This document shows positions 12,599 through 41,600 of a stretch of 64,000 nucleotides of DNA, in pieces. The notes under the pieces were generated by a model. It searched no databases and was not told the DNA's origin. It worked only from the letters and a program-made list of their open reading frames with translations. The stretch is from NCBI GenBank assembly GCA_918797485.1, contig CAKKNE010000003.1, positions 2,046,001-2,110,000 on the forward strand, given 5' to 3'. A program made the translations under genes and the position numbers. The DNA is from Pelagomonas calceolata. Lineage: Eukaryota. How positions within the stretch are numbered: position 1 is the first letter of the stretch; the number at the start of each line of letters is the position of its first letter.

Positions 12599-14374
12599 AT
12601 GGCGCAGCAGGCGTGCCTCCAAAAGTGCCGCCTCGGCCCGCCGCAACCCGTATACCCGCCGAACGAGTACACGGCTCCGCTGCCCCGCGACGGCGTGAGC
12701 ACGGGCGACCCAAACGCGCGCTACGACCATTTCCGCGCGCCGCGGGCCGACCACATCCTCCGCGAGGCCGACTTCGACTACGGGACCGAGCTTGCGCAGC
12801 TCGCCGCGACCGGTCCGCCGCCTGCGGGCTTCTCGCCGCGGACGCCGCCGCCGCCCGGCGCGCTCGCGCTGGACGTCGACGCCGAGGGCCGCGTCCGGGA
12901 GCGCGAGCGCATCATGCGTCTCCGCGAGTCTTGTTTCTACCAATTCTGCTGCTGCACGTGCTGTTCCGACGAGCTCTACAAGTACAGCCCGGAGCGGGAC
13001 GACGCCCAGGAGCGCGCGGCGGCCGCCGCCCACGGCGCCTTCGTCGACGAGGCGCGAGGCACGCTCGTCGTGACGCGCCACGCCTACCGCGCGGTCGTGC
13101 CGAAGAACTACACGACGACGGACCAGTACGGCCACAAGTTCGCCGGCATCGGCATCGGGGCGCACGACGTGTCGGAGCGAGGCTTCGCCGTACCGCTGCG
13201 CTACTGCCGGGTCGCGGCGGTGCCGACGGGGTCCGTCGCCCGCCGGCCCCTCCTCCTCGATCCGAAGGTTTCGGACTGCAAGGTCGAGGGTTCGGTCGTC
13301 GTCGTCTCGTGCGTGCCGACCGAGGCCGCGTCGCTGGAGGTCGTCGTGGCGTGCATCGACGTGGGGCCCGCCGGCAACGCGGGCGCGTTCGCCGCCGCCG
13401 CCGCGCGGGCTGCGGCCGCGGCGCCGCCCGTGTCCGCGGCGGACCGGGCCGCCTACGACGAGTGGTTCGTCGCGACGCTGGCGCGCTCGGGCCAGACCAA
13501 GGGCCCCGGCCAGTTCCGCAAGGTCGTCGGCGGCCTCCCGACCGGGCCGGCCGCTTACCGGTCGGCGAGCACCGACTGGTTCGGCGGTGGCGCGACGATC
13601 CGCGAGCTCGGCATCCGGCTCGACAGCAGCAACGTCGTCTTCCAGACGAAGAGGACCAACCCTGTCGTCTTCGAGCACGTCAACACGGGCGACTGCCTGC
13701 ACGGCATCGACGGCCGGCAATTGCCGGCCGGCGGCAAGAAGGCCGCCAAGGCCCTAGGGTCGCCCGAGTTCTGGGGCGGCAGCGCCGCGTCGGGGACCGG
13801 CGCCGGCCTGTTCACGACGCAGACTCCCGTGTACAACCCCGCGCGAGTCTACTCTGCGCCCCCCGTCGACGCGGGAGTGGCGAGGACGGCGACGCTCGCC
13901 GCGGCGGCGCCGCCGACGATCGTGAGCGCCGGAGGCCTCGGCGCGGTCGGCGTCGCGGACGGCGACGTCATCCTCAAAGCCGTCGTGAACGGCGCGCGCG
14001 TCGACGCGGCGGCCATGGACGGCGCGGCCTTTGCCGCGGCGCTCGCGTCCGCCGCCGGGTCCGTTGTCCTGGAGTCGGTGCTGACGCTCCGCGACCCCGT
14101 CTTCGGGCAGGACCCCTGCATGCAGCGGTCGCTCCCGTGGTGCGACATCGGCGAGGCGAACCGGACGACCCAGGTCGCGCCGGTCTCAGGCGTGGTCGCC
14201 GTGGGGACTGTCGTCGCGCCGCCGTCAACGTTCAAGGTCCAAGTGCCGCCCGGCGGCTCTGCCGGCCAAACGATCCAGATACAAGCGCCGAACGGTGTGA
14301 CGGTGCAGGTCCAAATCCCGGTTGGCTGTGCGGCGGGCTCGACGTTCGAGGTCGCGATGCCGGAACTAGCATGA
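12599..14374 (+). CDS. Paralog B of 8556-10685: lacks both WWE domains and has a different beta-rich C-terminal domain
   Basis: Core nearly identical to paralog A. Ends in TFKVQVPPGGSAGQTIQIQAPNGVTVQVQIPVGCAAGSTFEV. Confidence 0.75.
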   Translation: MAQQACLQKCRLGPPQPVYPPNEYTAPLPRDGVSTGDPNARYDHFRAPRADHILREADFDYGTELAQLAATGPPPAGFSPRTPPPPGALALDVDAEGRVRERERIMRLRESCFYQFCCCTCCSDELYKYSPERDDAQERAAAAAHGAFVDEARGTLVVTRHAYRAVVPKNYTTTDQYGHKFAGIGIGAHDVSERGFAVPLRYCRVAAVPTGSVARRPLLLDPKVSDCKVEGSVVVVSCVPTEAASLEVVVACIDVGPAGNAGAFAAAAARAAAAAPPVSAADRAAYDEWFVATLARSGQTKGPGQFRKVVGGLPTGPAAYRSASTDWFGGGATIRELGIRLDSSNVVFQTKRTNPVVFEHVNTGDCLHGIDGRQLPAGGKKAAKALGSPEFWGGSAASGTGAGLFTTQTPVYNPARVYSAPPVDAGVARTATLAAAAPPTIVSAGGLGAVGVADGDVILKAVVNGARVDAAAMDGAAFAAALASAAGSVVLESVLTLRDPVFGQDPCMQRSLPWCDIGEANRTTQVAPVSGVVAVGTVVAPPSTFKVQVPPGGSAGQTIQIQAPNGVTVQVQIPVGCAAGSTFEVAMPELA

Positions 14375-18744: not shown

Positions 18745-20940
18745 TTACACCGCCGCGTCGCCGCCGAGCAGCCGGGCCTCGTCTTCGTGGCGGCCGCGAT
18801 ACCTCCGCGGCCACGGCCACGGCCACGGCGACCACCGCGGACACGCGGCGCGCGGCGCGACGTCGGCGAGAGACGCGTCTGCGTCGCGCACGGCCCCGGA
18901 CGCGAGGTCGAATAGCCAAAAGGTGGCGCCCGCCAGAAGGTACGCCAGGAGGCGCGCGATGCGCGCGTGGGCGCGCAGGCGCGCATTGAACGCGCCGCCC
19001 GCGCGCAGGACGAGGTGGATCAAGCCGCGAACGGCCGCGTTCTCCGTCGCGGCGCGCGGCATCGTCGCGGCGACCGGCGACCGCACGCCTGCGCGCGCCG
19101 GCACGACCGCCCCGCGCTCGTCCCGCGCCCAGGGCTGCGGCGCGTTCACGATGCACCGCATTGGACTGCCCTCGACGGCGACGCTCGCGCTGTGCACCAT
19201 CAGCGGATGCAGCACGTAGACGTCGCCGGCGCGCCCCGTGGCGGCGACGACGTCCGCGGCGGGCGCCGCCGCGCGGCATGCGGCGCAGAGAGCGTGCATG
19301 CCGCGGACGTCGAGGCCCCGGGGCGCCGCCGCGAGCGCCTTCCCCATCGCGCGGTGGCTCCCCCGGAGGAGCAGCGTCGGCCCGGCATCGGGACGCACGT
19401 CCGTCAGGAGGACGAGCACGACGACGTGGGCGCTCGCGAGGTAGTCCTCGAGCTCGAAGGCGTGCGGCGCCGCGCCGCGGCGGCCGTTTCCGTGGTCGAT
19501 GTGCCACGTCGCCGCGAACTCTCCCGGCAGCGTCGCGGCCGGGTCGAGCGGGGACGGCGGCGCCCAGGTCCCGGCCGTCCCGCGGCGGTGCGTCGTCACC
19601 CACGCGCCAAAGGCGCCCGGCGGCGCGTCCGGCAGCGAGAGCGCGGCGAGCGGTGCGGCGAACAGCGGCGCGTCGATCGCCGCGGCGACGGCTCCCGCGA
19701 GCGCCGCGCCCGCGGCGCGCTCGGCGGCGCCGAAGGGCACCACCTCGCGCGACCGACCGTAGGCGCCCGCGTCGCGCGCGGCCGCGGCGCCCACCAGCGC
19801 CGCTCTAAGGACCGGCGCGTCGAAGGCGCCGGACAGCTTGGCGAAGCCGTCGTTGGCGAGGCGCCGCGCCACGTCAGCGGCCGCCGGGTCGGCATAGGCG
19901 GACGCGAGCAATGCGCCCGTCGACGGGTGGAGCCGGCGCCGCAGCGCCCAGCGCAGGGCCGCGCGTGGCGTTGGCGCGCCCCAGGTCCAGACGTCGACGC
20001 CCCGCAGCGCGACGAGAGCCGAGACGGTCGCGTCGTCGAGCGGTCGGTCGAGGTCTTCCGGCGACCTCAACAAGTCGCGGAGCTGGCGGTGCGACGTGAC
20101 CTGGACTAACGCCGAGGCGATACCCGGCGCGTGCGCGGCGAAGCGTATCGCGACGTCCTGCGGCCGCGAGCCGCAGGCGTCGGCGATGCCGCCGAACGCG
20201 GCGACGCGGCGCAGCAGCTCGCGGAACGGCACGCGCGCGCGGCCGTCGCCGCCCGCCCCGACCTCGCGCGGTAGCAGGTCGGCCCGGCCCGCGAGCAGCG
20301 CGCGCGCGACGCCGACGCCCTGCGTCGTGAGCCAGCCCTGGGCGAGGACCGACTGGGCCAACACGCCCACGCCGGCGCTGCGGCAGCCGTCGATGAGCGC
20401 GGCGTGCTCCTGCTGGAGCACGTTGAACGGCACCTGGAGTGCGTCGCAGCCCAGCGCCACGCAGCGGCGGCCGCACTCGAACGAGTGCACGCTCGCGCCC
20501 CAGCCGCCGATTTCCCCGGCAGTGACCGCGGCCTCGAGGACCTGCGCCACGGCCGGCGTGACGGCGTCCGCGGGCGGCGAGTGCAGCTGGTAGAGCGCGA
20601 GCCGCTTGCCGCGGAGCGCGGCGCGGCTCGCATCCAGCGCCGCGCGGCCCGCCGCGACGGACCAGTCGTGCTCGTATCCGTTCCGCGCGCACGGGTTGCC
20701 GTACTTCGTCGCCACGGCGACGCCGCAAGACGCCAGGCCGACGACGAACTCCGAGTGGCCGTACGCGTCAGATGTGTCGACGAGCGCGACGCCCGCGCGG
20801 CAAGCGGCCTCGAGAATGCGGGCGCCCTCTCCGTCCCCCAGCGTGGCCCCACCCAGCGAGACGGCCGCCACCGCGTCGCCCGCGCGACGCAAAAGGCGGC
20901 GTGTGCAGGCGAGCCGCCCGGGCGCTGGCGCCTCTGCCAT
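18745..20940 (-). CDS. Aldo-keto reductase fused to a PhyH-like 2OG-Fe(II) dioxygenase (copy 1)
   Basis: AKR motifs VDTSDAYGHSE, VATKYG, LYQLHSP and QVPFN. Dioxygenase motifs WHID, LLTDV...GPT...GSH and GDVYVLHPLMVHSAS. Confidence 0.8.
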   Translation of the reverse strand: MAEAPAPGRLACTRRLLRRAGDAVAAVSLGGATLGDGEGARILEAACRAGVALVDTSDAYGHSEFVVGLASCGVAVATKYGNPCARNGYEHDWSVAAGRAALDASRAALRGKRLALYQLHSPPADAVTPAVAQVLEAAVTAGEIGGWGASVHSFECGRRCVALGCDALQVPFNVLQQEHAALIDGCRSAGVGVLAQSVLAQGWLTTQGVGVARALLAGRADLLPREVGAGGDGRARVPFRELLRRVAAFGGIADACGSRPQDVAIRFAAHAPGIASALVQVTSHRQLRDLLRSPEDLDRPLDDATVSALVALRGVDVWTWGAPTPRAALRWALRRRLHPSTGALLASAYADPAAADVARRLANDGFAKLSGAFDAPVLRAALVGAAAARDAGAYGRSREVVPFGAAERAAGAALAGAVAAAIDAPLFAAPLAALSLPDAPPGAFGAWVTTHRRGTAGTWAPPSPLDPAATLPGEFAATWHIDHGNGRRGAAPHAFELEDYLASAHVVVLVLLTDVRPDAGPTLLLRGSHRAMGKALAAAPRGLDVRGMHALCAACRAAAPAADVVAATGRAGDVYVLHPLMVHSASVAVEGSPMRCIVNAPQPWARDERGAVVPARAGVRSPVAATMPRAATENAAVRGLIHLVLRAGGAFNARLRAHARIARLLAYLLAGATFWLFDLASGAVRDADASLADVAPRAACPRWSPWPWPWPRRYRGRHEDEARLLGGDAAV

Positions 20941-21015
20941 CACGAGGCTGCCCCGCGCTCGAGCCACGATGCTTGCTTGCCTAAACGCGCGGGAGCCCTG
21001 GAAGCCCCGATCGCG

Positions 21016-21311: not shown

Positions 21312-23565
21312 CTACGGGTCCCCGCCGCCGCGCTGGAGGAGCGGCGTATCATCGTCATAGCCGCTGCCGCCGACCTCCGCGTCGGGCGCGGGCGAGGGCC
21401 GGCGCCCGCGGCGTCCGAGCCATCCCCAAGCGCGGCGCGGCCGCGGCGCCTGGCGCGCGGCGGGCGCGGCGCAGCGGCAGAGGAGCGCGAAGCCGAGCGC
21501 GGCGGGCCAGTAGAGGAGCCACGCGAGGCGCGGGAAGCGCGCGCGGCACCGCTGGTGGAGCGCGCCGAAGGCCGCGGTCCACGCGACGAGCGGGACGACG
21601 AGCGGCCCGCAGCAGCCGCCCCCCCGCAACGCGTCGCGGATCGGAAGGTCGAGCGCGGAAAGCGATCCCTTCGCTGTTCGGCGCGGCCGCGCCGGGTACG
21701 GCAAGTTCAGGATCGCACGTGGCGCCCGGCGCGTCGATGCGGAGGCGGTGTGGAGCAGCAGCGGGTGGACGAGGAACGCGTCGCCCGCGGCGCCGACGAG
21801 CGTCGTCGCGTCGGCGTCGCCGAAGTACGAATCCGCCGCCGCACAGAGCGCGTACATGCGCGGCGTGTCCAGGAGGACCCGGCGCCACGGGCCGAGGCCC
21901 GCGAGGATGTTCGCCATCACCCGCTGGGATCCGGGCCACGCGACCGTCGGGCCCTGGTCCCGCGCCACGTCCGTCAGGAGGACATAAACGACGCACCAGG
22001 GCGCTAGCAGCTGATCCTCGAGCGCAAAGTCCCAGGCGGCGCCGTGCGGGCCGTGGTCGACGTGGTGGCCGTTGGCGACGCCGAGGCCCCAGGGCGAGAG
22101 GCCCGTCGCGACCGCCTCGCGGCCGCTCGGGCAGCGCCACGCCGCGACGCCCGGCGTCGCGCGGGCGTGCGCGACGACGTTTGCGGCGAAGGCCTTCTCC
22201 GCTCTCCCGGACCGACGCGGCCACGCGTCCGCGAAGCTGTCGACGGCAAACGGCGGCGTCGCGCGGCGGCAGCAGGTCGCGTCGTCGAGGATGGCGGCGA
22301 GCGCCGCCTCCAGGTCGCCCGGGAACGCGCCGGCGGCGAGCGGCGCGGCGACGTCGCGGTGGAAGTACGACGCCTGCGGTCGGCCCGGCTCGGCGACCGC
22401 GCCCGCTGCAAGCGCGCTCGCCACGTCCCGCGGGAATGCGCCACGGAAGGGCCCCGCGACGCCGCGCGTCGCGAAGTCCCGGCGCCATCTGGCCTCGTGC
22501 GGCGCGTAGCGGCCGCCCGCGTCGTAGAAGCCTGCGTGCCGCGTCGTTCGCGAACGATACGTGCGCGAAATACCATGGAAGACGACGAGGCGGACGCCGC
22601 GCCGCGCCGCCCGCGCTCCGGAGGGCCTCCGTCGCGTGCAGCTCCTCGAGCACGTCGCGTGGCGTCGGCCCCGCCCAGTCCCAGACGCGCGCGGCGCCGC
22701 CGTGGGCGCGGTCGCCCGGCGACGTTCCCAACGCAACGAGCGCCGCGCGCGCCGACTCCGGCAGCGGCTCGTCGAGACCGGCGCCGGCGACGAGGTCCGC
22801 GAGGCCCCGTGCGTCGTGCGCCTGGACGAGCGCCGAGGTCACGCCCGTCGCGTGCGCGGCAAAGCGCAGCGCGAGGTGTTCGACGCGCACGCCGCAGCCC
22901 TCGGCGACGGCCGCGACCGCGACGACGCGCTCGAAGAGCGCCCGCCGGCGCGGCGCGGATTCGTGGAGGAGACCGAGGCGAGCGGCCGCGACGCCGCGCG
23001 CCGTGAGCCAGCCGCGCGCGAGCGCGGACCTCGCGAGCACGCCGACGCCGCGCGCCGCGCAGGCGGCGAGGAGCGGCGCGAGCGACTGGTCCAGGGCGTT
23101 GAACGGCGCCTGGAGGCAGCGCGCGCCTGCGGCGACCGCGGCCGCGCCCGCCGCGTAGCTCTCGACCGACGCGCCCCACGCGCCGACGACGCCGCCCGCG
23201 ACGAGGCGCCCGAGCGTCTCGACGAGCGCCACGTCGTAGGCGAAGTCGTCGGGCGGCGAGTGGAGCTGGTAGAGCGCGATGCGCCGCCGCCGCAGCCGCG
23301 CGACGGCCTCGGCCGCCGCCGCCGTGCACCGCGACGCGGAGAAGTCGCCGCCGAACTTGGAGGCCACGTGGAGCGACTGGCCGTGCGCGCCGAGGAGCGC
23401 CTCCGAGGCGCCGTAGGAGTCCGCCGTGTCCGCGAGGCGCACGCCTAGGTCCGAGGCCGCCCGCAGCAGCTCCGCCGCCGCGCCCGGGCGCAGCGTCGCG
23501 GCGCCCAGCGAGACGCAGGCGACTTCGCAGCCCGGGTAGAGCGACCGCGTGTCGCGCAGCGCCAT
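21312..23565 (-). CDS. Aldo-keto reductase fused to a PhyH-like dioxygenase (copy 2); predicted 64-nt intron 22532-22595
   Basis: AKR motifs ADTADSYGASE, VASKFG, LYQLHSP and QAPFN lie in frame 21355-23658. Dioxygenase motifs HHVD, LLTDV...GPT..WPGS and GDAFLVHPLLLHTAS lie in frame 21312-22736. A GTCCGC...CGCAG intron joins the two frames exactly. Confidence 0.75.
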
Positions 23566-23684
23566 TACAACAGCTCCCGCAGCATGAGCTTTAGGAGAGG
23601 GCGGCGGGGGCTGCCCCGCAATAAGATTCCGCTTCCCTGGGGGCGGACAAGGCCGCAATACTCTCCGCCGCGCGCGCGCTGCTG

Positions 23685-23756
23685 CGGGTATTTAGCCCCC
23701 CCTCCCAGCACGAAAAGCTCTCGCGCGTTTCGTGCGGGGTGGGGGGCTAAAACCCG
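23685..23756. repeat. Imperfect inverted repeat / hairpin (~30-bp arms)
   Basis: CGGGTATTTAGCCCCCCCTCCCAGCACGAAA ... TTTCGTGCGGGGTGGGGGGCTAAAACCCG. Confidence 0.75.
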
Positions 23757-26672: not shown

Positions 26673-26866
26673 TGCTTGTTTGCGCTTCGCGGCGACGCGT
26701 GCGGTGCTCAACAGTGTGTGAATGCAGGGAGCTACTGCGGCGCCCTCGTCGGGCGCAGTTTCGTCTTTACACGTTCGCAGGGGTCAATAGCGCTGCCAGC
26801 GCCTGTCCAGCGGTACGCGCTCGACGCTGTTGCTCCGCTCGACGCAACTAAATAATGCCGATGCAG

Positions 26867-26888
26867 CTAGCGGCATGTAAGACACTAG
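26867..26888 (+). promoter_or_regulatory. CTAG-box motif (consensus)
   Basis: Between the divergent DIM1 and EF-hand genes. Confidence 0.65.
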
Positions 26889-27257
26889 AAATCAAGGATC
26901 AGTCGCTCGAAAGCGTGAATATGCATGAATTTCCACGCGAGCTTTATCATACGACTCTCCATCACTCCCAGGTTCGACCGCGACCGCTCCGACAGGATGA
27001 GGCACAGAGAGCCAGTGCTTGAGACAAGCCTCCTGAGCGGTCTGGCCAAGCGATTCCAGCAAGCACGGCTGCCCCTGACTCGACACGTATCTGCACGTTC
27101 ACGCGCGAGCGGATGCCCGGCCTCCGCGCCGCCGGGGCTGCCCGCATCACCAGCACATAGAGTAGCAGCAGCACATAGAGCACGAAGGCGCGCCGCTCCG
27201 GCGGCTCCACCACAAGTAACCACTCCGCGGACCTCCGCAGGGTCATACTAGTACGGC

Positions 27258-28789: not shown

Positions 28790-29330
28790 TTTGTTAGTAA
28801 GTTATTGATATGTATATGCGCGCGTCGATGGCGTGACGGCGGCTCAATCCACGCTGGTTCAGAGCCCCACTTCATCTGTTACGGTGTTAGGACCAGTGGA
28901 CCCGACTAAGTCCACGCAAAAACCCGGGGCTAGTGTGTCTACAACACTAGGCTGCTCGCGTTTTTGGTCCAAGCAGGAGGAGCGGAGAGAGAGGCCTGCG
29001 TGCGAAGCGGAGTCGATTATCACAGCTCTTAATTATAGCGAGACTGCTGGCTGCAAATTTGCGCGACGCCGTGGGTAGCGCCGCTGCTACACCGATTGGA
29101 CATACCGCAAGCGAGGCACCAATTCGCCGCCGCGGCGCACGGCGCGGCTCCCCAGCGCGACGCTGCCGTAGCACGTACCGGTCGCGACACACAGCGAACG
29201 ATTAGCGAGACGAAACGCCGCCCCAAGAGTACAGGAAGGAAAACGACTCGGACCCGACCGCGACGCCCGCCCCGCCGCAGGCCGCCCGGAGAGAGCAGAA
29301 GAGAAGAGAGAGCAGCGCCCCTCAAAAAAG

Positions 29331-29600
29331 ATGAGCGGCCTTATCCCGCACATCAAGACGACGCCCTACGACAAGCGTTTTCCCAGCACGAACCAGGCGA
29401 GCCACTGCTGGAACCGCTACAACGAGTACGTCATGTGCCTCAAGAAGACGGAGTCCGACGAGGACGCCTGCAAGCCCATGCGCCAGCTGGCCCTCTCCAT
29501 CTGCCCCGACGACTGGTGGAACAAGTGGGACGAGGAGCGCGAGGAGGGCACGTTCTCCGGCGTGAAGATGACGGACGCGGCGGCGACGTCTGGCCACTAG
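29331..29600 (+). CDS. COX6B: Cytochrome c oxidase subunit 6B (COX12)
   Basis: TTPYDKRFPSTNQASHCWNRYNEY..C...C...CP..W..KWDE.REEGTF. Confidence 0.95.
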   Translation: MSGLIPHIKTTPYDKRFPSTNQASHCWNRYNEYVMCLKKTESDEDACKPMRQLALSICPDDWWNKWDEEREEGTFSGVKMTDAAATSGH

Positions 29601-29668
29601 GGCCCCTTGTAAACTTAGTTCCATCGTGTCGTTCGTATCTCTCGTTCCGTATCGTTCGTATCTCGTTG

Positions 29669-29690
29669 CTAGCGGCCCGTAAGACACTAG
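29669..29690 (+). promoter_or_regulatory. CTAG-box motif (CTAGCGGCCCGTAAGACACTAG)
   Basis: About 325 bp upstream of the AlkB-MBD gene. Confidence 0.6.
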
Positions 29691-30015
29691 CAAGGCACAG
29701 TGCTCGGCACCGAATCGCGCCTCCTCGCACGTGCAGGAATTGAGCGTGAGGGCGCTGAGAAGAAGGCTAAAACACTTTTTCCAGCCCCTTGCAGCGATTA
29801 GACTAGCATCGGGAGCGAAACGCGCCGAGGGCTCTCTCTGAACCGGAAAACCCCTGCACGCGCGAAACGCGCGCAGAGCGCTGCGAGGCGGCAGCGAGCG
29901 CTGTCAGAAAGCTCCGCGGACAGCCAAAAAAAACAAACGCGCGCCAACACGTAAAAAAACCGGACCCGCGGGCGAAACTCGAGCGCCGCGGCGGAAGGAA
30001 GCAAAAAAATAGACC

Positions 30016-33000
30016 ATGTCGCGGCGCCGCAGCCGGGCCAACGAGCCGCCGGCGCCCGAGAAGGTCGAGGACGCCTTTTCGACGGAGACGTTGAACCAGC
30101 TCGCCGAGGAGCGCATGCGCGACATCAAGCACATCGTCGTGTACCGGCGGCGCGTGCCGTCGCGCGAGACCGTCGAGGCGCACCCGCAGACCGTGCACGT
30201 GTCGCTGGACGCGGGCGGCGTCGTCGGACGCATGCTCGTCGACAACGCCATCTCGCCGAACGAGCACGAGGCGCTCCTCGGCTGTCGGCGCCCGGCGTCC
30301 TCTAAGCTCCTTTGACGGCGTGGAGGATCTGTGCCGCTCGTAGTAGGACGTCACGCTCGCTTCCCGCGCAGGGTACGACCGGGGCTTCGACAAGGGCTTC
30401 GCGCGCGAGTACGCGGGCGACGCGACCGACAGCTTCTCGGGCAACCTCTCACAGCGGCTCACGGTCGACCGCTGGGACTTGACGCGCCAAAAATGCTCGT
30501 ACAAGACCGAGGGCGACCAGCGCGACAAGACGACCTACGTCATGGAGTTCGACGGCGCGCCGCGGCGTCGAAGTCGACCGCTCGTCCGCGATTCGTCGAC
30601 GCGAAGTATTAATCACCGGCACTCTCGACGCAGGCGTGAATACGACGATCGCCGAGACCGTGCTGCGGCTCTACGCCGCTCGCATCCGCAAAATCATGGA
30701 CCTCGTCGTGAACGAGGACCCGCGCGTGCGCTACGCGGAGGACGGCGAGGGCGACGCGGCCGAGCCGATCGGCGAGCCCTGCGACAAAGCGTCCGCCAAC
30801 GACGCGCGCTCGGGCGGCGGCGACGGCGTGCGGGCGCGCGCCACGGCCCTCACGGACGACCTCGCGGAGAATTTCGAGGACCCCGAGGCCATCCAGCTCA
30901 CGACGTACCAGCCGCGGCCGCAGTCTCGCGCGGCGTCCTAATCACCACGCCTCGACCGGCCGTCGACCGACGACTCGCGCTCACCTTTATCGGCGCGCAG
31001 GTCCGGCATGGCGCAGCACTTCGACTCGCGGTCGCGCTTCCTCTCGATCGCGACGATGTCGCTGCGCGCATCCGTCAAGCTCGTCCAGATCCGCGCTGCG
31101 AGCCGCGGCCCGAAGGACGGCATGCAGCGCTCCGAGATCCGGCTGCTGCCGCGCTCGATCTACCTCATGTCCGGGCCGGCGCGCGCCAACTGCCACCTCA
31201 AGGACGAGCCGAACGTCCAGGCCCAGGGGAACCACAAGGGCTGCCCGTGCTGCTGGACGCACGGCATCGACACCGACCAGACCGAAGCGCAGGGCCGCAT
31301 CGGCGTCACGTTCCGCCAGCTCGCGCCCTGGGCGCTGCACGAGGCCGAGCTCAAGCGCCTCGCCGACGAGCGCGCCGAGCGCGACAAGGCGGCCGAGGAG
31401 GGCGCCCTCCAGCCGCGGCGGCGCTCGACGCCGGCGACGAAGCGCGACGCGCCCACGGGTCCTGCGACGTGGCTGTCCGGCGAGGGCGCGGACGCCGTGC
31501 GCGCGTGGCGCTCGACGCTGGCGCCCGACGCGTGGGACGCGCTCGCGGCCGCGGACGGCCTGACGCTCAACAACGTGCCCGCGCGCGGCTGGCACCGCGA
31601 GGTGAAAGGAGCGGCGCCCGCGGCCGCACCGCTGCCGCCCGCGCCGAAGCCGCGCGTCGCGTCGACGGCGTCGGCCTGGGTCGCCGCCTGCACGGACCTG
31701 CTGGAGCTCGCCGGCAAGGAGAAGGGCGGCCTCACTGGTCTACGCGGGGCGCTGCAGAGCAGCGGCTTCCGCTGCGGCGAGCCAGCCCAGGGGCGAACCG
31801 AATTCCAAGTTTCGATGCCGCAGGAGTTCCCCTGCTACTACGACATCGTCGGCAAGGGCTACTCCGGCAGCAACCGACAGGACCTTATGACTTCAAGACC
31901 AGGACTCATGGCGTATTTAGAAGGCTGCCTCGCCCTCGCGCAAGCCGGCGGCGCCTACCGGACCACGGCCGACCGCGACGCGGACGGCGACGAAGCCGCG
32001 CGCCGCGCCGCCGAAAGGCCGAAGAAGGCACCGGACATCTGCTTCCACCACCCGGGCCAGTTCAAGGCATCGGATGCCCTGCGGTCCCGAAGCGACGTCG
32101 AGCGCTACCTGGCCGCGGACGCGACGCCGCTCTTCGAGTCGCCGCCGCTCGACGCCTTTTCGTTCGATAATGACGTCGCGGGCGACTTCCCGAGCCCGCC
32201 GCCGGGTTACTACTCGCGACTGAGTGCGAAGGTCGTCGAGCAGCTTCGGCCGGCGGCTCCAGCGTTGACGGCGGCGTCGCCGGCCGTCGTGTCGCGGCCG
32301 GCCGCGGCGCCGCCGGCCGTCGGCGCCGAGAGCGAGTCCGAGATCGACGAGTCCGTCGCCGATTCGGACGGCGAGGGCGACCCCGACTGGGACGGCGGAG
32401 TCCCGGCGAAGGAGCCGCGCGGCGCGCCCAAGGGCCGCGCGCCGAAGGGCTCGCCGGCCAACAGAGGGCCGCTGAATTACAAGTCATTTGAACCCCTCGG
32501 TGGCGCGGAGGCCGTGCGCTCGTGGCGCTCGACGCTGACACCCGACGCGTGGGACGCGCTCGCGGCCGACGACGGCCTGGCGCGCAACAACGTGCCCGCG
32601 CGCGGCTGGCACCGCCAATTGAGATTTCGCAAGGCTGCACCAGAGCCTGGACTCGGCGGCCACAAGTGCGACGTCTTCTTCCACGCCCCGGGCCAGCTCG
32701 TCGGCAACGAGACTCTGCGGTCCAAGCCCGATATCTTGAAACATCTGGCCGCGAAAACGACGCCGCTCTTCGAGGCGCCGCGGATCGACGACTTTTCGTT
32801 TGGGGGGAGCCAAGGTAGCCCGGCAGACTTCCCAAGCCCGCCGGAGGGTTACTACGCGCGGCTGCGCTCGCGGGTCCAGGAGCTGCTCCGTCCGGCGTCC
32901 GCCGCGCCCCCACCAGCTGCTCCTGCGCTGCCGCCATCGGCCATGGCGCTACCACCTGCGGCTTCTGCGCCGCCGCCGCCGCCGTCAGTCGCTGTTGAGG

Positions 33001-36000
33001 ACGCGGCGGCCCCGTTACTGCAGCGTGTTGCTGTGCCGGCCGGCGATTGGCGCATCGTCGGCGCACAAGTACAGGACGTCGACGATGCGACGGTGCGCGG
33101 CGTCGTAACTGATTGCCTAAAAAAGAAGGGCTCTAAGGAAGTGACGACGACGGCAGGCTACGTGGTGATGATAAAATCCACGCAATTGACGCAAGCGACG
33201 CTAACCGACGAGGAGGCCGCGCTGTGCGTCCGCCCGGCCTCGCGTAAGGACTACATGCAAGCGCGGATCGACGGCGCGATACGGTTCAGCCACGGCGGCT
33301 CCGAATTCAAGAACTGTTACACGTGCGCGGATGGCACGGAGCGGCGTCAATTCGAGGTCACGGCTACTCATGTCCGGTGCGTCCTCTGTGGTGATGCGCG
33401 GTCGTGGTCTTTGGAGACCGACTCGAAGATTCTCTTGAATTCTCTCAAGAAGCACTGTGGCGCGCAGAAGCACCTCGACCGCCTCGTCCAGTCCGTGGGC
33501 GCGCCGGCGACCGCCGAGGCCTCCACTACGCCCGCGCCGGCGCCGGCGGCTCCTGCGCTGCCGCCGCCGCAACCACAGAACGTGCGGCCGCAAGCCGTCG
33601 CCGCGTCGCAGCGCTTCGCCGTCGACGACCTCGTCCAGGCCGACTTTCATGCTCAAAACGCATACTACGACGGCGTCGTCGTGACCGCGCGCGCCGACGG
33701 CGAGAAAGGTTTCCTGTACCGCATCGAGTACGACGACGGCGACGACGAGGACGACGTCCCGGAGGAGCGCATTCGGCCGGCGCCGAAAAAGACGCTACGC
33801 ACACGCGGAAGCGTATGGGTCGGGCGGCGGCTCAAGGCCAACGCCAACGCGAGGTCACTTCGATCCCGCAGCGAGGGCCGCATCGTGGGATGGCTGCCCG
33901 TGCGCGGCGTCAAGGAGCCGTTCCTCAACGCCGCCGGCCGGCCGGCGCCCATCTACCGCGTCGACTACGGCGGCGGCCGTCCCGACGAGCTGGAGACCTA
34001 CGAATTGCTCGACGAGAGCACGCTGCTACCACCGCAAACCTCCGAGGAGTGGCAGCGCGAGACGGCCTTCGCGGAGTTCCTGCGCGAGCGCGACGTCGCC
34101 TGCAAATTTAGCTCATCGCGACCGCGCGAGTTGACCGCGCGCGCGCTGTACGACAAGTACGCGGGGGCCGAGACCGTGCGGGCGTTCTTCGAGCTTGGAG
34201 GTACCGCGGAGGCGCTCGTGAAGGAAATCTGCCAGGAGCGCTGCACGATAGAGAACGTCGACGCCCTCTGGAGCGAGTACTGCGCCCAGACGCTAGACGA
34301 AGGCGCGGAACGGGAGAAGCCCGAGCCGGTGAAGAAGCCCAAGGCGAAGAAGCGCGCGCGAAAGCCGGCCGCGGCACCTCCAGCTTCAATCGTCGTCGGC
34401 GCGCCTGTGCAAGCTGCCGACGAGGAGCCGTCGTCCGCGCGGCGCGTCGGCGGCGTGGTTATTCCGGCGAAGAAGGTGCGCGGCCCCCCGGAGCCCTGGG
34501 AAGGTTTGGTGTCGACGACGCCGGCGCCCAAGCCGTCGGTCAAGCGCGAACCAAAGCCGGCTCCTTCACCACACGATTGGGTGGCCGTCGGCTCGCACGT
34601 CCAGCACAGCAATGGGTTGCGGGGGGTCGTGACGAAGAGCGGAGGTGCCGGTTTCACCGACGTTACGACGAAGACGGGCTACGTAGCGACGGTTCATCGC
34701 CAGGATCTGACGAAAATTACTCTTACGGCCGAGGAGGCGGCACTCTGCGACCGGTTCCGATTACAGCCCCACGAGTGGCTCCAAGCACAGATGGATGGCG
34801 CTATCTGCGCAGTATATGAGGGTCGAGAGTTTGGGAACTGCTTCGCGACAAAAACCGGTAGGCCGCAACGGATGTTTACAGTCGAGTCGAACGGCGACGT
34901 GCGGTGTGCGCTCTGCGACTGGACCGCACCTGAGAGAGCGTCCACGGCAATGCAGAATGACTTGTCCACTTGGAAAAGATTGTTTCCTTCCCTCAAAACT
35001 CACTGCGGCCAGACTCCGAGCTCATTGAGTAAACCGGCAGTAAAGCGACACGTCGAGCGCGTCCTAGCCATGGCCGCGGAGCCGTCGAAGCCGCCCACAG
35101 CGACCATCGATACCGACGACGGCGAGACGCCGGAGCCGCGGCGCCCTTCGAAAAGGCCGCGCGGCGCGCCGCCTGTGCATGCTGCTGCCGCGTTAGATGC
35201 GGAGCCGCCGCAAGCTGCGTCGGACGCGGTTGTCCCGGCGAAGAAGGCGCAAGGCCGCCCGCGGAAGGTCCAGGCGCCGCCGCCGCCGCCACCTCCTCCG
35301 GCTGCGGGTTACGACTGGATCGTCGTCGGCGCACAGGTGCAGACCGTCGAGGTAGCTTACGGCGAGGCGGTTCGCGGTATTGTGACGGAGATTGGCACTG
35401 CATGGGTCACCGTGCTCTCGACGGAGGGCTACGAGGTCAAGTCGAGACGAGCGTGGCTGGCGCCCGCGACGCTGACGGACGAGGAGGCCTCGCGATGCGC
35501 CCGGGGGCCGCAGCGGCCAGCCGAGTGGCTCCAGGCCCGGATCGACGGCTCAATCTGTGTTCGCTACGGCCAGCGCGAGTTCCAAAATCGATTCTCCACC
35601 ACCGATGGCAGGGTCATCCGGCAGTTCGTCGTCGACTCCGGCACGACGAATGTGCGCTGCGCCCTCTGCGACTGGAAGCCGACGCAGGACCGGCTTAATT
35701 TGCGGAGCGGCCCGGGTTGGAACACGTTACTCAACGCCCTCAGAACTCACTGTGGTCAGAGCAAACAAGGGAATGGTGAAAGAGCACCAAAACAGCACAT
35801 GGAGCACGTCCTCAGCGTGGCCGCGGCACCGACCGCGGTCTCTTCCACGCCCTTAGCGCCGCCGCCGCCAGCCGTCGTTGAGGTCGCGGCGGCCCCGTTA
35901 CTGCAGCGTGTCGCGGCACCGGCCGAGGCGGCGCCGGCACTGGCCCGCCGCGGCAGACCACCGGCCAAGGCCGACCACAAGGCCAGTCGCTTCGCAGGCG

Positions 36001-38624
36001 TGACCTGGGACCCTTATAAGGGCGGCAAGTGGAGAGCGGCGATCATGGTGCAAGGGCACACGATACCCCTCGGCGACTTCGACGTCGAGGAGGACGCCGC
36101 ACGGGCCTACGACGCCGCGCGGGCGAAGTGGGGGGCGCTGACAAGGAACGTCAGAATTCCGCTCAACTTCCCCGGCGAGGCACCGCTCGCGTCGGCGCTG
36201 GCCGCGCTGCCGCCGCTGCCCCGGGAGCTGCAGCCGCCGGCGCCGCTGCCGCCGCGCCGCCGATCTACGCCGCCGCCCGCGCCGGCGCCCGCGGTCTCGC
36301 CGGCGCCGGCGCCCGCGGAGCCGCCGCGCGCACCGGCGCCGGACGAGCGCATTCGTGTCGGCATGGTCGTCGAGGCCTCACCACATGTGTGGGGTGCCGA
36401 GTACGCGGAGAAGGTCGGATCTGCGAAACGGTACCGCGGCACTGTTAAGGCGCGCGACAGCGGAGAAAGGTTGCCGGCCGGCTGCCCTGCACCGATGCCG
36501 GATGAGCCTGTCTGGCTCGTGAGCTACGAGGACGATGGGAAGGATTGGGCGACGCCCGAGCGCTTCCTCAGCATCGTCGCGCCCGTCGACGGCCAGCGCG
36601 CGGGGCGGGAGCGGACGAAGCCGCAGTTCCTGTCAGGCTGCGTTGATGCGGACCGGGCTTACGTGCCGACGCAAGATGAGGACGACGCGCCTGGGGCGCC
36701 GGTGCCGCCGGCCGCGCAGCTGCCAACGCCGCCGCCGCCCACCGCGCCGGCGCCCGTGGTCTCCCCGGCGCCGGCGCCCGCGGTGCTGCCCGCGCCGTCG
36801 CCTCCACGCGTGCCTTCGCCACCGGCGGCCGGGCGCATCTGCGTCGGCGCGGTCGTCGCGGCCGAGTCCCAGGTGTGGGGCGCCGGCTTCGCGAGGAAAG
36901 TAGGAGCTACGAAACGATACTGCGGCACTGTGAAGGCGCGTGGCAACGGAGATATTTTGCCGGTGGGCTGCCCGCCGCCGAAGCCAGGTGAACGTATCTG
37001 GCGCGTGCTCTACGACGACGACGGCCAAGATTATGACACGCCCGAGCGCTTCCTCTCCTGCATCGTCGTCGGCGCGGTCGTCGAGGCCGCGCCAGAGGCG
37101 TTCGGCCACGACCCTACGAATAGCGTGGCCGCGCGGTACCGCGGCACTGTTGTCGAGCCCGGCGAGGCTTTTAATTTGCCGTTAGGATGCCCTCAAATCG
37201 AGGCGGGTGAGCCCGTCTGGAACGTGCACTACGACGACGACAACCGCGTCTGGGCGACGCCCGAGCGCTTCCTTTCCTGTGTCGTGGTCGCATCGGGCAG
37301 CAGCAAACGCAGGCGCTGCAGCGACAATTCGACGGCGGTTGCCGCCGCCGAAGCGGCGCCGCTCCCCCTGACCGCGCGGCGCGTCGGCGGCGAGGTCATG
37401 CCGGCGAAGAAGGCGCGCGGCCCTCCGGAGGGTTGGGAAGATTTGGTGTCGACGACGGCGGCGCCCAAGCCGTCGGTCAAGCGCGAGCGAAAGCCAGCTC
37501 CTCCACCAAACGATTGGGTGGCCGTCGGCTCGCACGTCCAGCACAGCAATGGCTTGCGGGGCGTCGTGACGAAGCTCGGAAATACCGGTCACGCAGAGGT
37601 GACGACGAAGACGGGCTACACCGTTAACGTTTTTCGCACGGATCTGACGAAAATAACGCTTACGGCGGAGGAGGCGGCGCTCTGCGACCGGAGCCGCTTG
37701 ACGCCGAACGAGTGGCTCCAGGTCCAACTAGACAGCGCCGTCTGCGCGGTATATGAGGGTCGAACGTTCGGGAACTGCTTCGCGACCAAGGACGGGCGGA
37801 CGCAGCGGATGGTCTCGGTCGAGTCGAACGGCGACGTGCGGTGTGCGCTCTGCAATTGGACCGCACCGTCAGGCGCGTCACGCGCGCTACAGAACGATCT
37901 GTCGGCTTGGGGAATATGGTCTCATCCCATCAAAACCCACTGCGGCCAGTTTGCGAGCACATTGAAGGATCCGGCGACACAACAACATGTCGAGCGCGTC
38001 CTAGCCATGGCCGCGGAGCCATCGACGCCGCCCATAGCGACCACTGATGCTAACGACGACGGCGAGACGCCGGAGCCGCCGCCACTGACCGCGCCGGCCG
38101 CGCCGGCCGCGCCGCCGCGCCCGCCCACGCCGTTCCGCCTGCCGACGCGCTCCGACTACGGCGAGGTTCCACCCACGACGCGGCTCCGCAAGCGCTCGCC
38201 GCCGCCGCCGGACGAGGCCTGGAACCCGCCGCCGCGCGCCGAGCATGCCCGGCAGACGAAGAAGCCGAGGCGATTCGCCGAGGTGGATCAAGACGTCCCC
38301 GCGCGGGCGTGGCGGGAGGGCTCACCCCGGGCGGCATCGCCCTCGCCTGTCTTCGCGGCGCCGTCGTCGGCACCCTTCGTATGTGCGACGCGGTGGCCCG
38401 AGGTTGGCGAAGAGTGCGAGTTCCTTGTCGTAGATGACCATACCCACCAGTGGTACTTGGGTCACTGCGTTGAGGCCACCGAGGTGCGCGTCGTGCTCAA
38501 CTACAACGCTTCGAAAAATAGGTGGAAGGGCGTGGTGCACGAGTTCTACAAGGACGACGACAAGCCGGCGGAGTGCATCCGGCTCCGCGAGGACGCGCCA
38601 GAGCTGCCGGCGAACATCGTGTGA
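30016..38624 (+). CDS. Giant chromatin-type protein: AlkB-like 2OG-Fe(II) dioxygenase, 2 MBD-like, Tudor/SH3-like, AP2 and 4 Zn-finger-bearing repeats; predicted introns 30284-30371, 30567-30633 and ~30920-31000
   Basis: AlkB-type Y.P..G...HFD, L.PRS..LMSG.AR, WTHGI and RIGVTFR. MBD-like RGWHR...K.DVFFHAPG...LRSK. AP2-like SRFAGVTW...KWRA.I...LG.F..EE.AARAYD...LNFP. The first two GT-AG introns restore frame; the donor of the third is ambiguous. Confidence 0.75.
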
Positions 38625-38689
38625 CCCGGGAGTAAGTCGATATCGTGTGACCTGGCTAGCCGATACACATGTAGTTCGTTACTAGGCCC

Positions 38690-41600
38690 TCAGGGAGGAC
38701 TCGCGTTGCGCTCCCCGGGCGCGGGCGCGGGCGCCGGCGCCGGCGCGAGCGACAGCAGGTCGCTCTCGACGAAGGACGCCGACGCCGACCCCGCCGGCGA
38801 CCGCGGCGAGGGCTCCGGCGTGGGCACGGTGTTGTCGTATTTCACGGGAATCGGACTGGATGGCGGCGACGGCGGCGGCTCTATTACTTCAGAACCGGTC
38901 CAGGGTCCCGCGTAGGAGGGGTGGTCCGGGTTCTCGCAGTCGTACGAATACTTCTTGCTGTTGCGGTCGTCGGGGTCCGACAATCGCGGCGACGGGTCCG
39001 GCCCGTAGAACGTGTCCTGGACGCCCTGGGCGCGCAGTTTCTTCGGTATTCTAGCGATCGTTAACTGCAACCCACCCACCGGCGACGCTTCCACGATCAA
39101 GCGCTTGAGGATGTAGCGCGACACCGTCGCCTGGACCAGTTCCGGGTCCGTCATCCGAGATTCGTCGAACTCGATGAGCTTGATGATTTCCCTCGCACCT
39201 AAGTGCAATTTCGCGGTGTAGGACGTGACCGGATCGTAGGCCTGGATCACCAAGCCGTGGACCGCGGGCTCGCCCGGCGCTCGCGTCGTCACCGTAACCA
39301 CACAATCGCCACCGTGCGGCAGAGCCATGCCCTTGCGCATCACTAAGTCTCCCACAGTTTGTAAAGGTATAAAAGCCAAAGGCACGCCGTGGGGCCGGCC
39401 CTCGCCTTTTATTGGGTCCACTTTTATAGTGGTATCTAGACCTTGATAGGCAGATAACCAGGGCTTCTCGGGCTTGGCTTCTAGCGACAGGGTCATGTCC
39501 GGCAATGGTTCAGGCGCTTCCTCCTCCAAGTCCTTGACGAAGTCCGGGGCCTCCCTTCTTTCATTCCAGTCGCGCTCGGTTTTCAGTTGTTCGGGTGAGG
39601 GGACGTCTTTCAACCGCAAGTGGCGAATCAACCAGTCGATGGCCGCCTTGCGCGGCTCGCCCTGGGCGTGCTCGAGGCAAGGCCGGCCCATGCAGTGGCG
39701 CTGCTCGGCGCCCGTGATTCTTATTTCACACGCTCGCCGGATCCTAGGCACATAGACGTTAAAGTCCAGATCCAACTCCGTATCAATGGCGTGGAATACA
39801 CTGACCACACATTCCGTCCTCCCGACTCGTGTCGAGACTCGGAACAAGCGTCTCCTTTTGGATCGGCGATTAATCCGATCTTCCGCCTTCCTCGGCTTCG
39901 CGCCGTACTGCAACCGCCGATTCCGCTTGTCCTTGGTCTTGTCATGGAGGCGGTAGGGGTCGTCCTCGTCCTCCGTGAGGCCACCGTCGTAGTCGTGGAC
40001 GCCGTCGTCGTCGCCCATGGGCTCCGGCTCGGGACCGTGTAAGAGTGGTGCGGGCCGTCCGCCGGACCAGGGCAGGAAGCAGTCCGGCGGCGCCCGATGC
40101 GAGCACGACAACCGTAATCTCTTCGTGATAGCTAACGCTAAATCGAACCTATGCTTCGGGTTCGCTAATCTAAATGAAGGCGGCGTCCGGTTGGCCTTCG
40201 CACCGTAGTGGGCCAAAGAATCGGCGTCCTCCAGTTGTATAACTTCCCTGCACGCTTCCGGCGGTATGATGAACATGGTACGGTGCTTCGCCAGCGGGTT
40301 CCAGCACACAAACCTCAAATGAGGTAGGGGCAGGCCTTCGTCGAGACCCGACGGCGCGGGCGCCGGCGCCCCGGCGGGCGCTGGCGCCGGCGCCGGCGCC
40401 GGCGCCGGTCCTGAAGCGGGCGTCTCCGGTAATTCAAAGACGTTGACGTGGACCAAGGCGCCGTCGATGGCCTGCGCATGTCTCAAAATCTTCTTGCCTC
40501 GGTGTAAGGCGCCCTGGTCGAAGAGGCGATGCGCGTTCGCGTCCTCGTCATCAGACCCACCCAAGCCGAGAGGCGTCACCTTGAACCGCGCGTCGAAGAT
40601 GCGGTCGGTCGTCCACTTCATCGTGAAGCGATCTTCCTTCTTCACAAATTTATCGGTCTCCTCATCTACTAAACCTTCGCACAGAATCATCCGGTTCTTG
40701 ATCAGGTAGAGGATCATCTCTTCCTCTCTCTCCTGTGCAAGGAGGTGTTGCGCGTCCGGTCCGAGCGTCATTCTGAGATGCTTCAAATCTTCGATAATCG
40801 CACATTCGGCGCCCGACGTCGTATGTCGGTACGCTTCGAATCGCAACTGCCTCACGGCAACGCCCGACGTGTACTGCTCGAAGACCTTGACAAAGACGAG
40901 CTCCTTGGCCAGTCCCAAATCATCTACCGAAGGCCACGTCTCGGGCTCGAGCGGCTTTATAGATGTTCTGACACCTTGCTGGAAGATGAGGCGCATGTCC
41001 GTGATGACCGTTTCTTCTATTTCCGGAGGCGCCTCGGCCTCCGCGACCTCGATGGCGGCCGCCGGCGCTGGTGCTGGTGAGGGTGCGGGTGCTGGTGCGT
41101 CTGAAACCTCTTCAGGTGGAGGTGGTAGCTGACTCGGGTCGTCGAACCAGACCAACTGCGAAAAGTCGCCCTTCGGCGGTGGTGGTGGGAGTCGGTGTTC
41201 ATAAAATACAGTAGGAGGCGGTCTCCGGAACTTGACACTATGTTCCAATGAACCATCGTGCTCCTCGACGACTCGCTCCCTAGGATGGCCGAAGGTCGAC
41301 TGTTCGCCCGCGAAGCGTCGATGGAACGGCGCGTCACTCCCTTCTAACTCCTCGCGCGACGGCGGCCGTCTAGGTTTCAGTTTCAGAGGCGAGCCCTGTT
41401 TCTTCTTGCGCCGCAGTTCATTCGATACGGCCCTTAGTAGAACTTCGCCCGACTCCTTATCTCTAGTTAATCCATCAACCAGCTTCTGGATGCCTTCTTC
41501 TCTCGTATCTTTATTCCCTAGGACCGTAAAGACGGGCCTCGCTGGGTGCAGGTCCGTGTCCTCGAGCTCCCAGAGCTCGATGAGCCGCTCGCGCGTCACG

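Follow-up and report, generated by a model that had tools for sequence, protein, structure and literature searches.

A gene of Pelagomonas calceolata encodes, in one transcribed frame, an AlkB-family Fe(II)/2OG dioxygenase joined to a long tail of MBD, Tudor, AP2 and finger-like modules. Because of this combination, the enzyme may well strip methyl groups from DNA at marked chromatin; to the specific reading that it is an oxidative N-demethylase of a DNA base near methylated CpG we give about an even chance. No enzyme acting on or around pelagophyte DNMT5 linker methylation was found named in the literature searched. The gene is a concrete candidate, with a catalytic domain of ~360 aa, intact active-site residues and compact stand-alone homologues of 349-391 aa. 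A new active-site insert marks an AlkB subfamily that gained chromatin readers several times, and one substrate assay would therefore give function to the some 46 distinct sequences of the family.

Gene structure and transcription

The locus lies on contig CAKKNE010000003.1 of assembly GCA_918797485.1 (2,046,001-2,110,000, forward strand); coordinates below are those of this window, the whole stretch of 64,000 nt that was analysed. RNA runs revealed three introns (Table 1), whose removal gives a frame of 2787 aa without internal stop. Introns 1 and 3 were also visible in raw polyA reads. The splice donors are GT at 30284 and 30923 and, once slid by 1 nt as the reads permit, GC at 30555. A reading of the sequence alone had joined upstream exons to the 2538-aa open reading frame of exon 4 (ATG 31008 to stop 38624). 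This chain was borne out, with two splice sites corrected, by transcript contigs of X6 and X7 that skip all three introns within single records, which speaks against a separate transcription of the dioxygenase exons, the case in which that reading would have fallen. An in-frame stop lies just 5' of the ATG at 30016, and transcript contigs start at ~29694. X1 contigs tile exon 4 (31001-31597, 31569-32614 and 32586 onward), and no splice-type joint was seen inside this exon in RNA reads or contigs.

Table 1. Features of the gene, in window coordinates.
Feature	Position	Strand	Evidence and remarks
Coding exon 1	30016..30283	+	RNA joints; ATG at 30016
AlkB-family Fe(II)/2OG dioxygenase domain, aa ~42-360/2787	30139..31340	+	Pfam, profile matches, fold of homologue P0009
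Intron 1, 88 nt, GT-AG	30284..30371	+	Joint in X21 reads, X6 and X7 contigs; missing from L006 (open frame)
Coding exon 2	30372..30554	+	RNA; predicted substrate-recognition lid region of the AlkB domain (homologue model)
Intron 2, 79 nt, GC-AG	30555..30633	+	Joint in X6 and X7 contigs, whose position may shift by up to 4 nt; missing from L006
Coding exon 3	30634..30922	+	RNA; ends in first core strand, QLTTY 30894-30908
Intron 3, 78 nt, GT-AG	30923..31000	+	Joint in X21 and X23 reads and X6, X7, X1, X5 and X8 contigs; position matches L006
Coding exon 4, single open frame to stop	31001..38624	+	Transcript 3' end ~38642-38646
Subfamily-specific Cys/His insert (C311, H325, C328, C330, C331), predicted zinc site	31191..31253	+	Family alignment; putative zinc binding
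MBD-like unit 1, split by ~145-aa fast-evolving insert	31470..32256	+	Similarity to unit 2; weak Pfam match
MBD unit 2, core 32601-32750, conserved flanks	32487..32898	+	Pfam MBD; alignment to MBD2 chains
Repeat module copy 1: small beta-barrel-like half (KOW/SH3-like by eye) and zinc-finger-like half	33042..33491	+	Self-similarity
Tudor domain	33612..33776	+	Pfam PTM_DIR17_Tudor E 1.3e-5, Tudor_3 E 8e-5, both below cut-off
Second Tudor-like segment, by eye only	33810..34010	+	Conserved in L006; no Pfam match
Repeat module copy 2	34572..35069	+	Self-similarity
Repeat module copy 3	35310..35816	+	Self-similarity
AP2 domain	35985..36176	+	Pfam AP2 E 1.5e-6, 49/54 positions, below cut-off
Three ~78-aa repeats, SH3/Tudor-like by eye	36345-36578, 36831-37064, 37059-37283	+	Self-similarity
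Repeat module copy 4	37509..38006	+	Recent duplicate of copy 2, 82% DNA identity over 713 nt
Conserved C-terminal domain	38376..38621	+	61% to P0001 (79 aa), 56% to L006; no Tudor/Agenet match

The dioxygenase domain

The N-terminal ~360 aa are an AlkB-family Fe(II)/2OG domain, completed by the upstream exons as the sequence-only reading had proposed, with HFD at 31017-31025, WTHGI at 31254-31268 and RIGVTFR at 31296-31316. Alignment to ALKBH8 shows the HxD...H iron triad to be intact (H253, D255, H334), and the two 2OG-binding arginines of the C-terminal RxxxxxR pair (R346, R352) are present as well. Pfam 2OG-FeII_Oxy_2 (PF13532) matched the exon-4 half with E 0.006; this half alone and the homologues scored 17-22 bits, where the cut-off is 31.2. 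Among solved structures, PDB profile searches placed ALKBH8 (E 9e-5), NMAD-1 (E 8e-4) and ALKBH7 (E 0.006) nearest in sequence; the three have no common substrate class. These best matches fall outside the ALKBH2/3 repair clade, an observation that speaks against a DNA substrate.

Evidence for the fold comes from a model of the homologue P0009 (pLDDT 85.7, pTM 0.88), which is 42% identical to exon 4 of the window gene in the best local alignment and ~35% identical to the homologue P0001 over the whole domain. The model has a double-stranded beta-helix core and an AlkB-type N-terminal lid, with a lid-like hairpin (strands 97-100 and 113-120). All 50 matches listed in the structural comparison (VIA) were AlkB-family entries with tied Z-scores of 14.0-15.8, those listed by Foldseek were likewise all AlkB-family, and 26 of the 30 Atlas matches were PF13532 clusters. 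Lack of a 2OG-Fe(II) fold, which would have spoken against the earlier reading, is thus contradicted by this homologue. No TET/JBP catalytic domain appeared among the structural matches listed for P0009. For the named AlkB clades (ALKBH1-16, FTO), profile matches were weak and mixed and structural scores tied; because of these ties, the structural ranks pick out no substrate.

ALKBH8, ALKBH4/NMAD-1 and ALKBH7 have the HxD...H triad, the C-terminal arginine pair and the fold in common with the window enzyme, at ~15-22% identity. ALKBH2 and ALKBH3 gave the top structural scores to P0009 (Z 15.8, rmsd 3.0-3.1 over ~190 residues), tied with ALKBH1/6. They are 12-16% identical, gave no sequence-profile match in the PDB search, and have neither the insert nor an MBD; a common job on 3mC/1mA is plausible.

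As ALKBH8 is the best profile match and stand-alone members exist, the enzyme might modify RNA in the manner of ALKBH8 or ALKBH7, acting for instance on tRNA or nascent transcripts while the tail tethers it to chromatin. The CxxC...H...H fingers of the tail also resemble, by eye, fingers of the U1/matrin type. ALKBH8 is reported to hydroxylate tRNA (PMC3265494). Against this stands the lack of any RNA-binding Pfam domain (RRM, methyltransferase or other) in the family proteins and locus ORFs scanned, and we regard an RNA substrate as improbable. Unlike ALKBH8, the window gene showed neither RRM nor methyltransferase when exon 4 and the exons before it were scanned with Pfam, and it has a reader tail of 2400 aa.

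An algal subfamily with a Cys/His insert

A segment of ~20 aa, immediately N-terminal to the distal iron histidine, is an insertion relative to ALKBH8 and the Pfam model. The Cys-rich motif HKGCPCC noticed earlier was found from 31233. CxCCWxH occurs in 71 of the 72 family proteins, a count partly due to the selection of members, and the full C..H..CxCC pattern in 66 of 72. HxD/N is present in 60 of the 64 proteins long enough to show it, and RxxxxxR in 69 of 71. No AlkB subfamily with this insert was found in the literature searched, and by its sequence the dioxygenase belongs to an apparently undescribed algal subfamily. Its catalytic half is, judging from substitution rates, under purifying selection: L003 and L004 had 0 amino-acid changes at dS 0.11 and 0.14, and L002 had a dN/dS of 0.12.

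P0001, which is 76% identical, has the same fusion in one ORF of 2692 aa, and the syntenic L006 conserves it with an additional zf-CXXC (E 4e-12) behind a frame change. DNA-binding partners in the clade of the window gene are MBD, AP2, Myb and zf-CXXC. The other clade has Tudor pairs with a weak likeness to the KDM4/53BP1 methyl-lysine readers (E 0.03-1.9), and L008 carries zf-CW. The same catalytic subfamily has been fused independently to Tudor pairs, zf-CW and zf-CXXC. Because of the MBD and these repeated fusions, action at chromatin, as supposed in the earlier reading, is well supported at the level of sequence.

Several features of the family count against a DNA substrate: fusion to DNA readers is seen in no more than three distinct sequences, of which P0001 and L006 are 95.6% identical in the catalytic domain; there are Tudor-pair and zf-CW relatives; several pelagophyte-clade members (349-391 aa) are without any reader; and the MBD has Phe or Ser at a key position (see below). 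In addition, the tail of a close paralogue (P0007/L001/L017) is short and contains no MBD.

The Tudor and CW partners would suit a protein (histone) substrate no less than DNA. An AlkB-fold lysine demethylase or hydroxylase of histones or other chromatin proteins, a counterpart of the JmjC enzymes KDM4/KDM2, would agree with the presence of the NMAD-1/ALKBH4 clade among the nearest relatives, ALKBH4 having been reported as an actin demethylase. Moreover, the partners of the subfamily (Tudor pair, PHD-like, CW, CXXC, MBD) mirror the set of KDM4, for which PHD, Tudor, C2H2 and MBD fusions are described along with a Cys/His zinc cluster (PMC2938197). However, the enzymes matched by fold act on nucleic acids and have a lid hairpin, to which that of the P0009 model is comparable, AlkB is described as base-specific in origin (PMC2938197), and the likeness of the Tudor pairs to KDM4 is weak. 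We consider a protein substrate unlikely.

The MBD units

Two MBD-like units had been proposed. The contiguous unit 2 passes the cut-off of Pfam MBD (PF01429; 24.6 bits, cut-off 21), as do its counterparts in P0001 and L006, whereas the split unit 1 matches weakly, in its C-terminal half only (E 0.11). The two halves of unit 1 each share ~50-55% identity with unit 2. The first arginine finger of unit 1 is missing at the usual offset, and its aspartate is lost in P0003, L002 and L003. By these signs the split MBD is degenerate.

In unit 2, R790, D804 and R820 align to both arginine fingers and the aspartate of MBD2/MBD3, whose roles have been described (bioRxiv 10.1101/338061). Position 806 is Phe, as in MBD3, where strong binders have Tyr; P0001 also has Phe and L006 has Ser. 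MBD3 with Phe is reported to bind ~tenfold more weakly, yet still to bind mCG (bioRxiv 10.1101/338061). Compared with MBD2/MBD3, the window MBDs further have longer loops, extra conserved flanks and a second copy with a ~145-aa insert. Since unit 2 has the Tyr-to-Phe change and unit 1 lacks its first arginine finger, methyl-CpG reading would fall to unit 2 alone.

Other modules of the tail

The AP2 domain, earlier placed at ~35985-36173, was recovered at nearly the same position, and matched WRI1 (E 2e-7), TEM1 (E 0.0016) and ERF096 (E 0.003) in the PDB; in all, five plant AP2/ERF sequences matched, with E between 2e-7 and 0.03. For the proposed Tudor-like domain (~33615-33775), several Tudor-type Pfam families did match (E 1e-5 to 0.08), but all below cut-off. 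Both assignments are credible, sub-threshold sequence matches. The C-terminal segment is conserved in relatives, yet its Tudor/Agenet label is unconfirmed, because Pfam gave no such match at E up to 10.

Two kinds of repeat had not been located before. A module of ~150-170 aa occurs in four copies, each ending in a CxxC...H...H finger; for copy 1 no family or fold match was found. The three ~78-aa repeats gave no family or PDB match.

The tail could be an assortment of modules shuffled within the lineage that matters little to the enzyme, which would keep the job of the stand-alone members. P0001 and L006, for all their catalytic identity, diverge strongly in how many modules they have and in what order; the insert of MBD unit 1 has a dN/dS of 0.67-0.82; and GC3 is 0.97 over the first 600 nt of exon 4 but drops to 0.69-0.85 further on. 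Nevertheless, all three long homologues keep the MBD, the AP2, both repeat types (finger and SH3-like) and the C-terminal domain, and chromatin readers were gained independently in other lineages, which makes a tail of little bearing very improbable.

Substrate and proposed mechanism

In the favoured DNA N-demethylase reading, the protein would be nuclear, and MBD unit 2 would bind CpG, methylated or not, to which the Tudor and AP2 modules would add contacts with histones and DNA. The Cys/His insert would bind zinc and shape the substrate entrance, and Fe(II)/2OG chemistry would hydroxylate an N-linked methyl group, which leaves as formaldehyde. A pelagophyte is reported to carry dense linker methylation by DNMT5 (PMC9998398), and 3mC is described as made by DNMTs and repaired by ALKB2 (PMC9246332). 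Repair of 3mC/1mA at heavily CpG-methylated linkers is a tentative assignment, slightly ahead of 6mA erasure, which we hold to be doubtful.

A TET-like role on an AlkB scaffold, with oxidation of 5mC or writing of another new base in algae with periodic linker methylation, would fit the MBD and the CXXC of L006, a combination of readers typical of 5mC systems; structurally, the insert adjoining the active site is a novelty, and DNMT5 is reported to be present in pelagophytes. However, the CXXC of L006 sits behind the frame change, the characterised 5mC oxidases are described as TET/JBP enzymes (PMC4738411), and the structural matches listed are all AlkB-family, mostly acting on N-methyl groups. 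Such a role is quite unlikely. There is similarly little to be expected of the wider proposal that zinc-insert AlkBs of marine algae are MBD/CXXC/Tudor-recruited erasers or re-writers of periodic DNMT5 linker methylation, in which 5mC would be oxidised or a new base made while the targeting tail is rapidly re-shuffled. If true, it would mean a TET-independent 5mC oxidase on an AlkB scaffold.

TET1 and KDM2/KDM4 follow the same design logic, a 2OG oxygenase with CXXC, MBD or Tudor readers, but TET/JBP and JmjC are other catalytic families, neither being among the P0009 structural matches listed. AlkB is likewise tethered to chromatin or DNA readers in the fusions of Iyer et al. (PHD, AT-hook, SAD/SRA) and in ciliate DMT3/ALKBH5. 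The architecture notes in the part of the Iyer et al. supplement covered here mention no MBD, AP2, Tudor, CXXC or CW fusion and no insert-bearing clade. For the clades fused to PHD, AT-hook or SAD, DNA 6mA demethylation has been proposed (PMC4738411), and long ciliate ALKBH5 is reported as shown to be a DNA 6mA demethylase (PMC12974511).

Gene structure and transcript

The sequence-only reading had joined three short upstream exons to a 2538-aa ORF, and both parts of this proposal held. In the window, the stop-to-stop frame at 30942-38624 comprises 2560 aa, of which 2538 aa follow ATG 31008, and the spliced frame from ATG 30016 encodes 2787 aa with zero internal stops. Four public RNA runs were mapped over 29000-39000. 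They skip 30284-30371, 30555-30633 and 30923-31000; the position of the second skip may slide by up to 4 nt, and a slide of 1 would make it GC-AG. An initial exon model with GC donors at all three introns was discarded, as the RNA shifted two of them to GT. All three skips occur within single contigs (runs X6 and X7), raw polyA reads support introns 1 and 3 (2 reads per run where listed), and the residues at the exon junctions agree with the homologous protein P0001.

No splice-type joints were seen within exon 4 in the RNA runs. Contigs of run X1 tile 31001-31597, 31569-32614 and 32586 onward and overlap one another by ~30 nt where a 114-nt internal repeat lies. The full gene length is not covered by any single RNA record and raw reads are strongly 3'-biased (run X21: depth >100 at the 3' end but ~1-4 at the 5' end), which means that transcripts confined to the 3' part may also exist. 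The 3' end of the transcript likely lies at 38642-38646, where minus-mate side molecules start.

All three introns share a 7-mer located 8-9 nt past the donor. The syntenic metagenome locus L006 has neither intron 1 nor intron 2, and its intron 3 (~3700-3775) starts with an 8-nt copy of the start of the following exon. These features resemble what has been reported for Aureococcus, where introners insert with 8-bp target duplications (bioRxiv 10.1101/2022.06.06.494994; PMC9481584).

A catalytic domain of the AlkB family

The catalytic half encoded in exon 4 matched Pfam 2OG-FeII_Oxy_2 weakly (E 0.006). A single-sequence search of PDB with this half gave zero matches, and NCBIfam yielded nothing relevant. 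A search of 1.84 billion representatives yielded 16 proteins, and a 10-row profile retrieved 63 of the 7996 scored candidates. The 72 collected proteins form 46 clusters at 90%. Of the 64 that are long enough to show the HxD/N motif, 60 have it; RxxxxxR occurs in 69 of 71. In PDB, profiles matched ALKBH8 (E 9e-5), NMAD-1 (E 8e-4) and ALKBH7 (E 0.006).

Structure was predicted for the stand-alone homologue P0009 instead of the window's own domain (pLDDT 85.7, ~74-80 in the insert; pTM 0.88). All 50 matches listed by the structural aligner were of the AlkB family, with ALKBH2 at Z 15.8 (rmsd 3.0, 191 aligned) and ALKBH3, ALKBH1, ALKBH6, FTO and NMAD-1 within ~1. Foldseek ranked NMAD-1, ALKBH6 and E. 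coli AlkB at the top, and PF13532 clusters accounted for 26 of the 30 Atlas matches. The fold and profile matches therefore place the domain in the AlkB family, without assigning it to any named clade.

A Cys/His insert immediately precedes the distal iron histidine H334. CxCCWxH was found in 71 of the 72 proteins and the longer C...HxxCxCCWxH in 66, counts that are partly circular since the searches themselves used that region. From the conservation of the insert, we infer that it binds zinc.

Purifying selection acts on the catalytic half among close relatives: two of them, at dS values of 0.11 and 0.14, differ in 0 amino acids over 109 codons, and in a third dN/dS was 0.12. The dN/dS of 0.45-0.52 against L006 is probably inflated, because a GC3 of ~0.97 depresses dS.

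The reader tail

MBD unit 2, the contiguous copy, scored above the Pfam cut-off. Aligned with MBD2, it keeps both arginine fingers and the aspartate, and Phe replaces Tyr. The same Phe occurs in MBD3, where the change reportedly cuts mCG binding about tenfold while binding persists (bioRxiv 10.1101/338061). MBD unit 1 is a duplicate interrupted by a fast-evolving insert of ~145 aa; its first arginine is absent at the usual offset and the aspartate is gone in three of the six copies examined. A nested third MBD within this insert found no support (hhalign probability 0.9%; no Pfam match). A fold prediction for the two units failed, at pLDDT 37 from nine shallow alignment rows.

Further along, the tail holds an AP2 domain below the Pfam cut-off yet supported by PDB matches, one Tudor domain likewise below the cut-off, four mapped copies of a module of 150-170 aa with CxxC...H...H at its end, three repeats of ~78 aa and a conserved C-terminal segment without a family assignment. 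Neither the finger nor the SH3-like repeats matched anything informative in Pfam, PDB or Atlas, and the family labels of the finger modules and ~78-aa repeats were assigned by eye.

Relatives and turnover of the tail

Those relatives that carry a species or strain name belong to the pelagophytes (Chrysophaeum taylorii, Pelagophyceae sp. CCMP2097). P0001 (2692 aa), whose catalytic domain is 76% identical to that of the window, has the same head and two MBD units, followed by AP2, Myb, finger and SH3-like repeats in a changed order. Among 44 metagenome loci, a full gene occurs in L005/L006. L006 shares with the window an upstream ORF and the convergent IQ-motif gene. It encodes a finger, one MBD, AP2, Tudors, two repeat modules, one SH3-like repeat and a zf-CXXC above the cut-off (E 4e-12); since the reading frame changes at a Pro/Ala micro-repeat that lies between the MBD on one side and AP2 and CXXC on the other, its single polypeptide is putative. 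The catalytic domains of P0001 and L006 are 95.6% identical, and their modules differ in number and order. In this pair, a stable head sits on a tail that is shuffled fast.

One close paralogue ends in a short, MBD-free tail, and several members stand alone. A second clade, with an SH-aLRT of 99% in a quick tree of 33 rows without reference clades, carries sub-threshold N-terminal Tudor pairs together with HTH segments and segments of zinc-ribbon or PHD-like type. In metagenome locus L008 (7820-8245), on a contig of lower GC (0.51), the family domain is followed by a zf-CW above the cut-off (E 4e-11), an independent reader fusion. The annotated fusion of P0011 (Chrysophaeum taylorii) to a SLAC1 anion-channel domain is possibly a gene-model merge.

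None of eight viral pattern matches was a relative; of 16 such matches in prokaryotic genomes, 2 held up in tblastn and no locus was returned. A search restricted to proteins of 1118-3190 aa scored 7984 candidates and yielded P0001 alone, a faint hint of rarity.

Reader-fused AlkB enzymes are already known as a kind, and one family member is auto-named 'AlkB-like domain-containing'. The subfamily, its Cys/His insert and the MBD-bearing tail appear to be new. Across the literature covered by full-text searches, no title or opening of an abstract described an AlkB-MBD fusion or this insert, a provisional absence. As far as the excerpts extend, the AlkB architecture notes in the supplement of PMC4738411 give PHD, AT-hook, SAD and other fusions and no MBD, AP2, CXXC or CW, and the main text of PMC3265494 names AlkB groups 9-16, none with such a motif.

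Predicted site of action and substrate

The domain has been fused independently to MBD/CXXC/AP2, to Tudor pairs and to zf-CW, and the enzyme therefore likely acts at chromatin; that the tail is incidental to the enzyme is very improbable. Among the predicted activities we favour N-demethylation of a DNA base, at about even chances, because a pelagophyte is reported to carry DNMT5 linker methylation (PMC9998398; PMC3145265), DNMTs produce 3mC that ALKB2 repairs (PMC9246332), reader-fused AlkB proteins have been proposed as 6mA erasers (PMC4738411) and a long AlkB protein was shown to erase 6mA (PMC12974511). Pelagophytes go unmentioned in the main text of a 6mA survey (PMC12695648). A protein substrate, suggested by the similar partner-domain set of KDM4 (PMC2938197), is unlikely. 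Oxidation of 5mC we consider less likely still. TET/JBP and JmjC entries were missing among the fold matches listed, an absence that is not decisive against either family. An RNA substrate is slightly less probable again.

Neighbourhood of the gene

Features of the window around and within the AlkB-family gene
Feature	Position	Strand	Remarks
Dispersed repeat, ~105 nt	7001-7106 and 26863-26967		88% identity
Direct duplication, 1.55 kb	8790-10343 and 12626-14167		98% identity
Two adjacent aldo/keto reductase ORFs	18745-21015 and 21355-23691	-	One fused to PhyH dioxygenase domain
COX6B gene, directly upstream	29331-29600	+	Highly expressed; Pfam E 4e-16; polyA at 29627
AlkB-family gene	30016-38624	+	Exon 4 at 31001-38624
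MBD unit 1 (split)	31470-32256	+	
MBD unit 2 (core)	32601-32750	+	
IQ-motif ORF, intron-free, 3182 aa	38690-48238	-	IQ E 5e-6 on fragment; no Pfam match whole
NACHT-type (NPHP3_N) and WD40-repeat ORF, 1495 aa	48517-53004	+	Internal DNA repeats

The first copy of the 1.55-kb duplication lies inside an ORF with two WWE domains. By architecture, the 1495-aa ORF would be NLR/HET-E-like. The IQ-motif ORF converges on the AlkB-family gene and is kept downstream of it in L006 at 77%.
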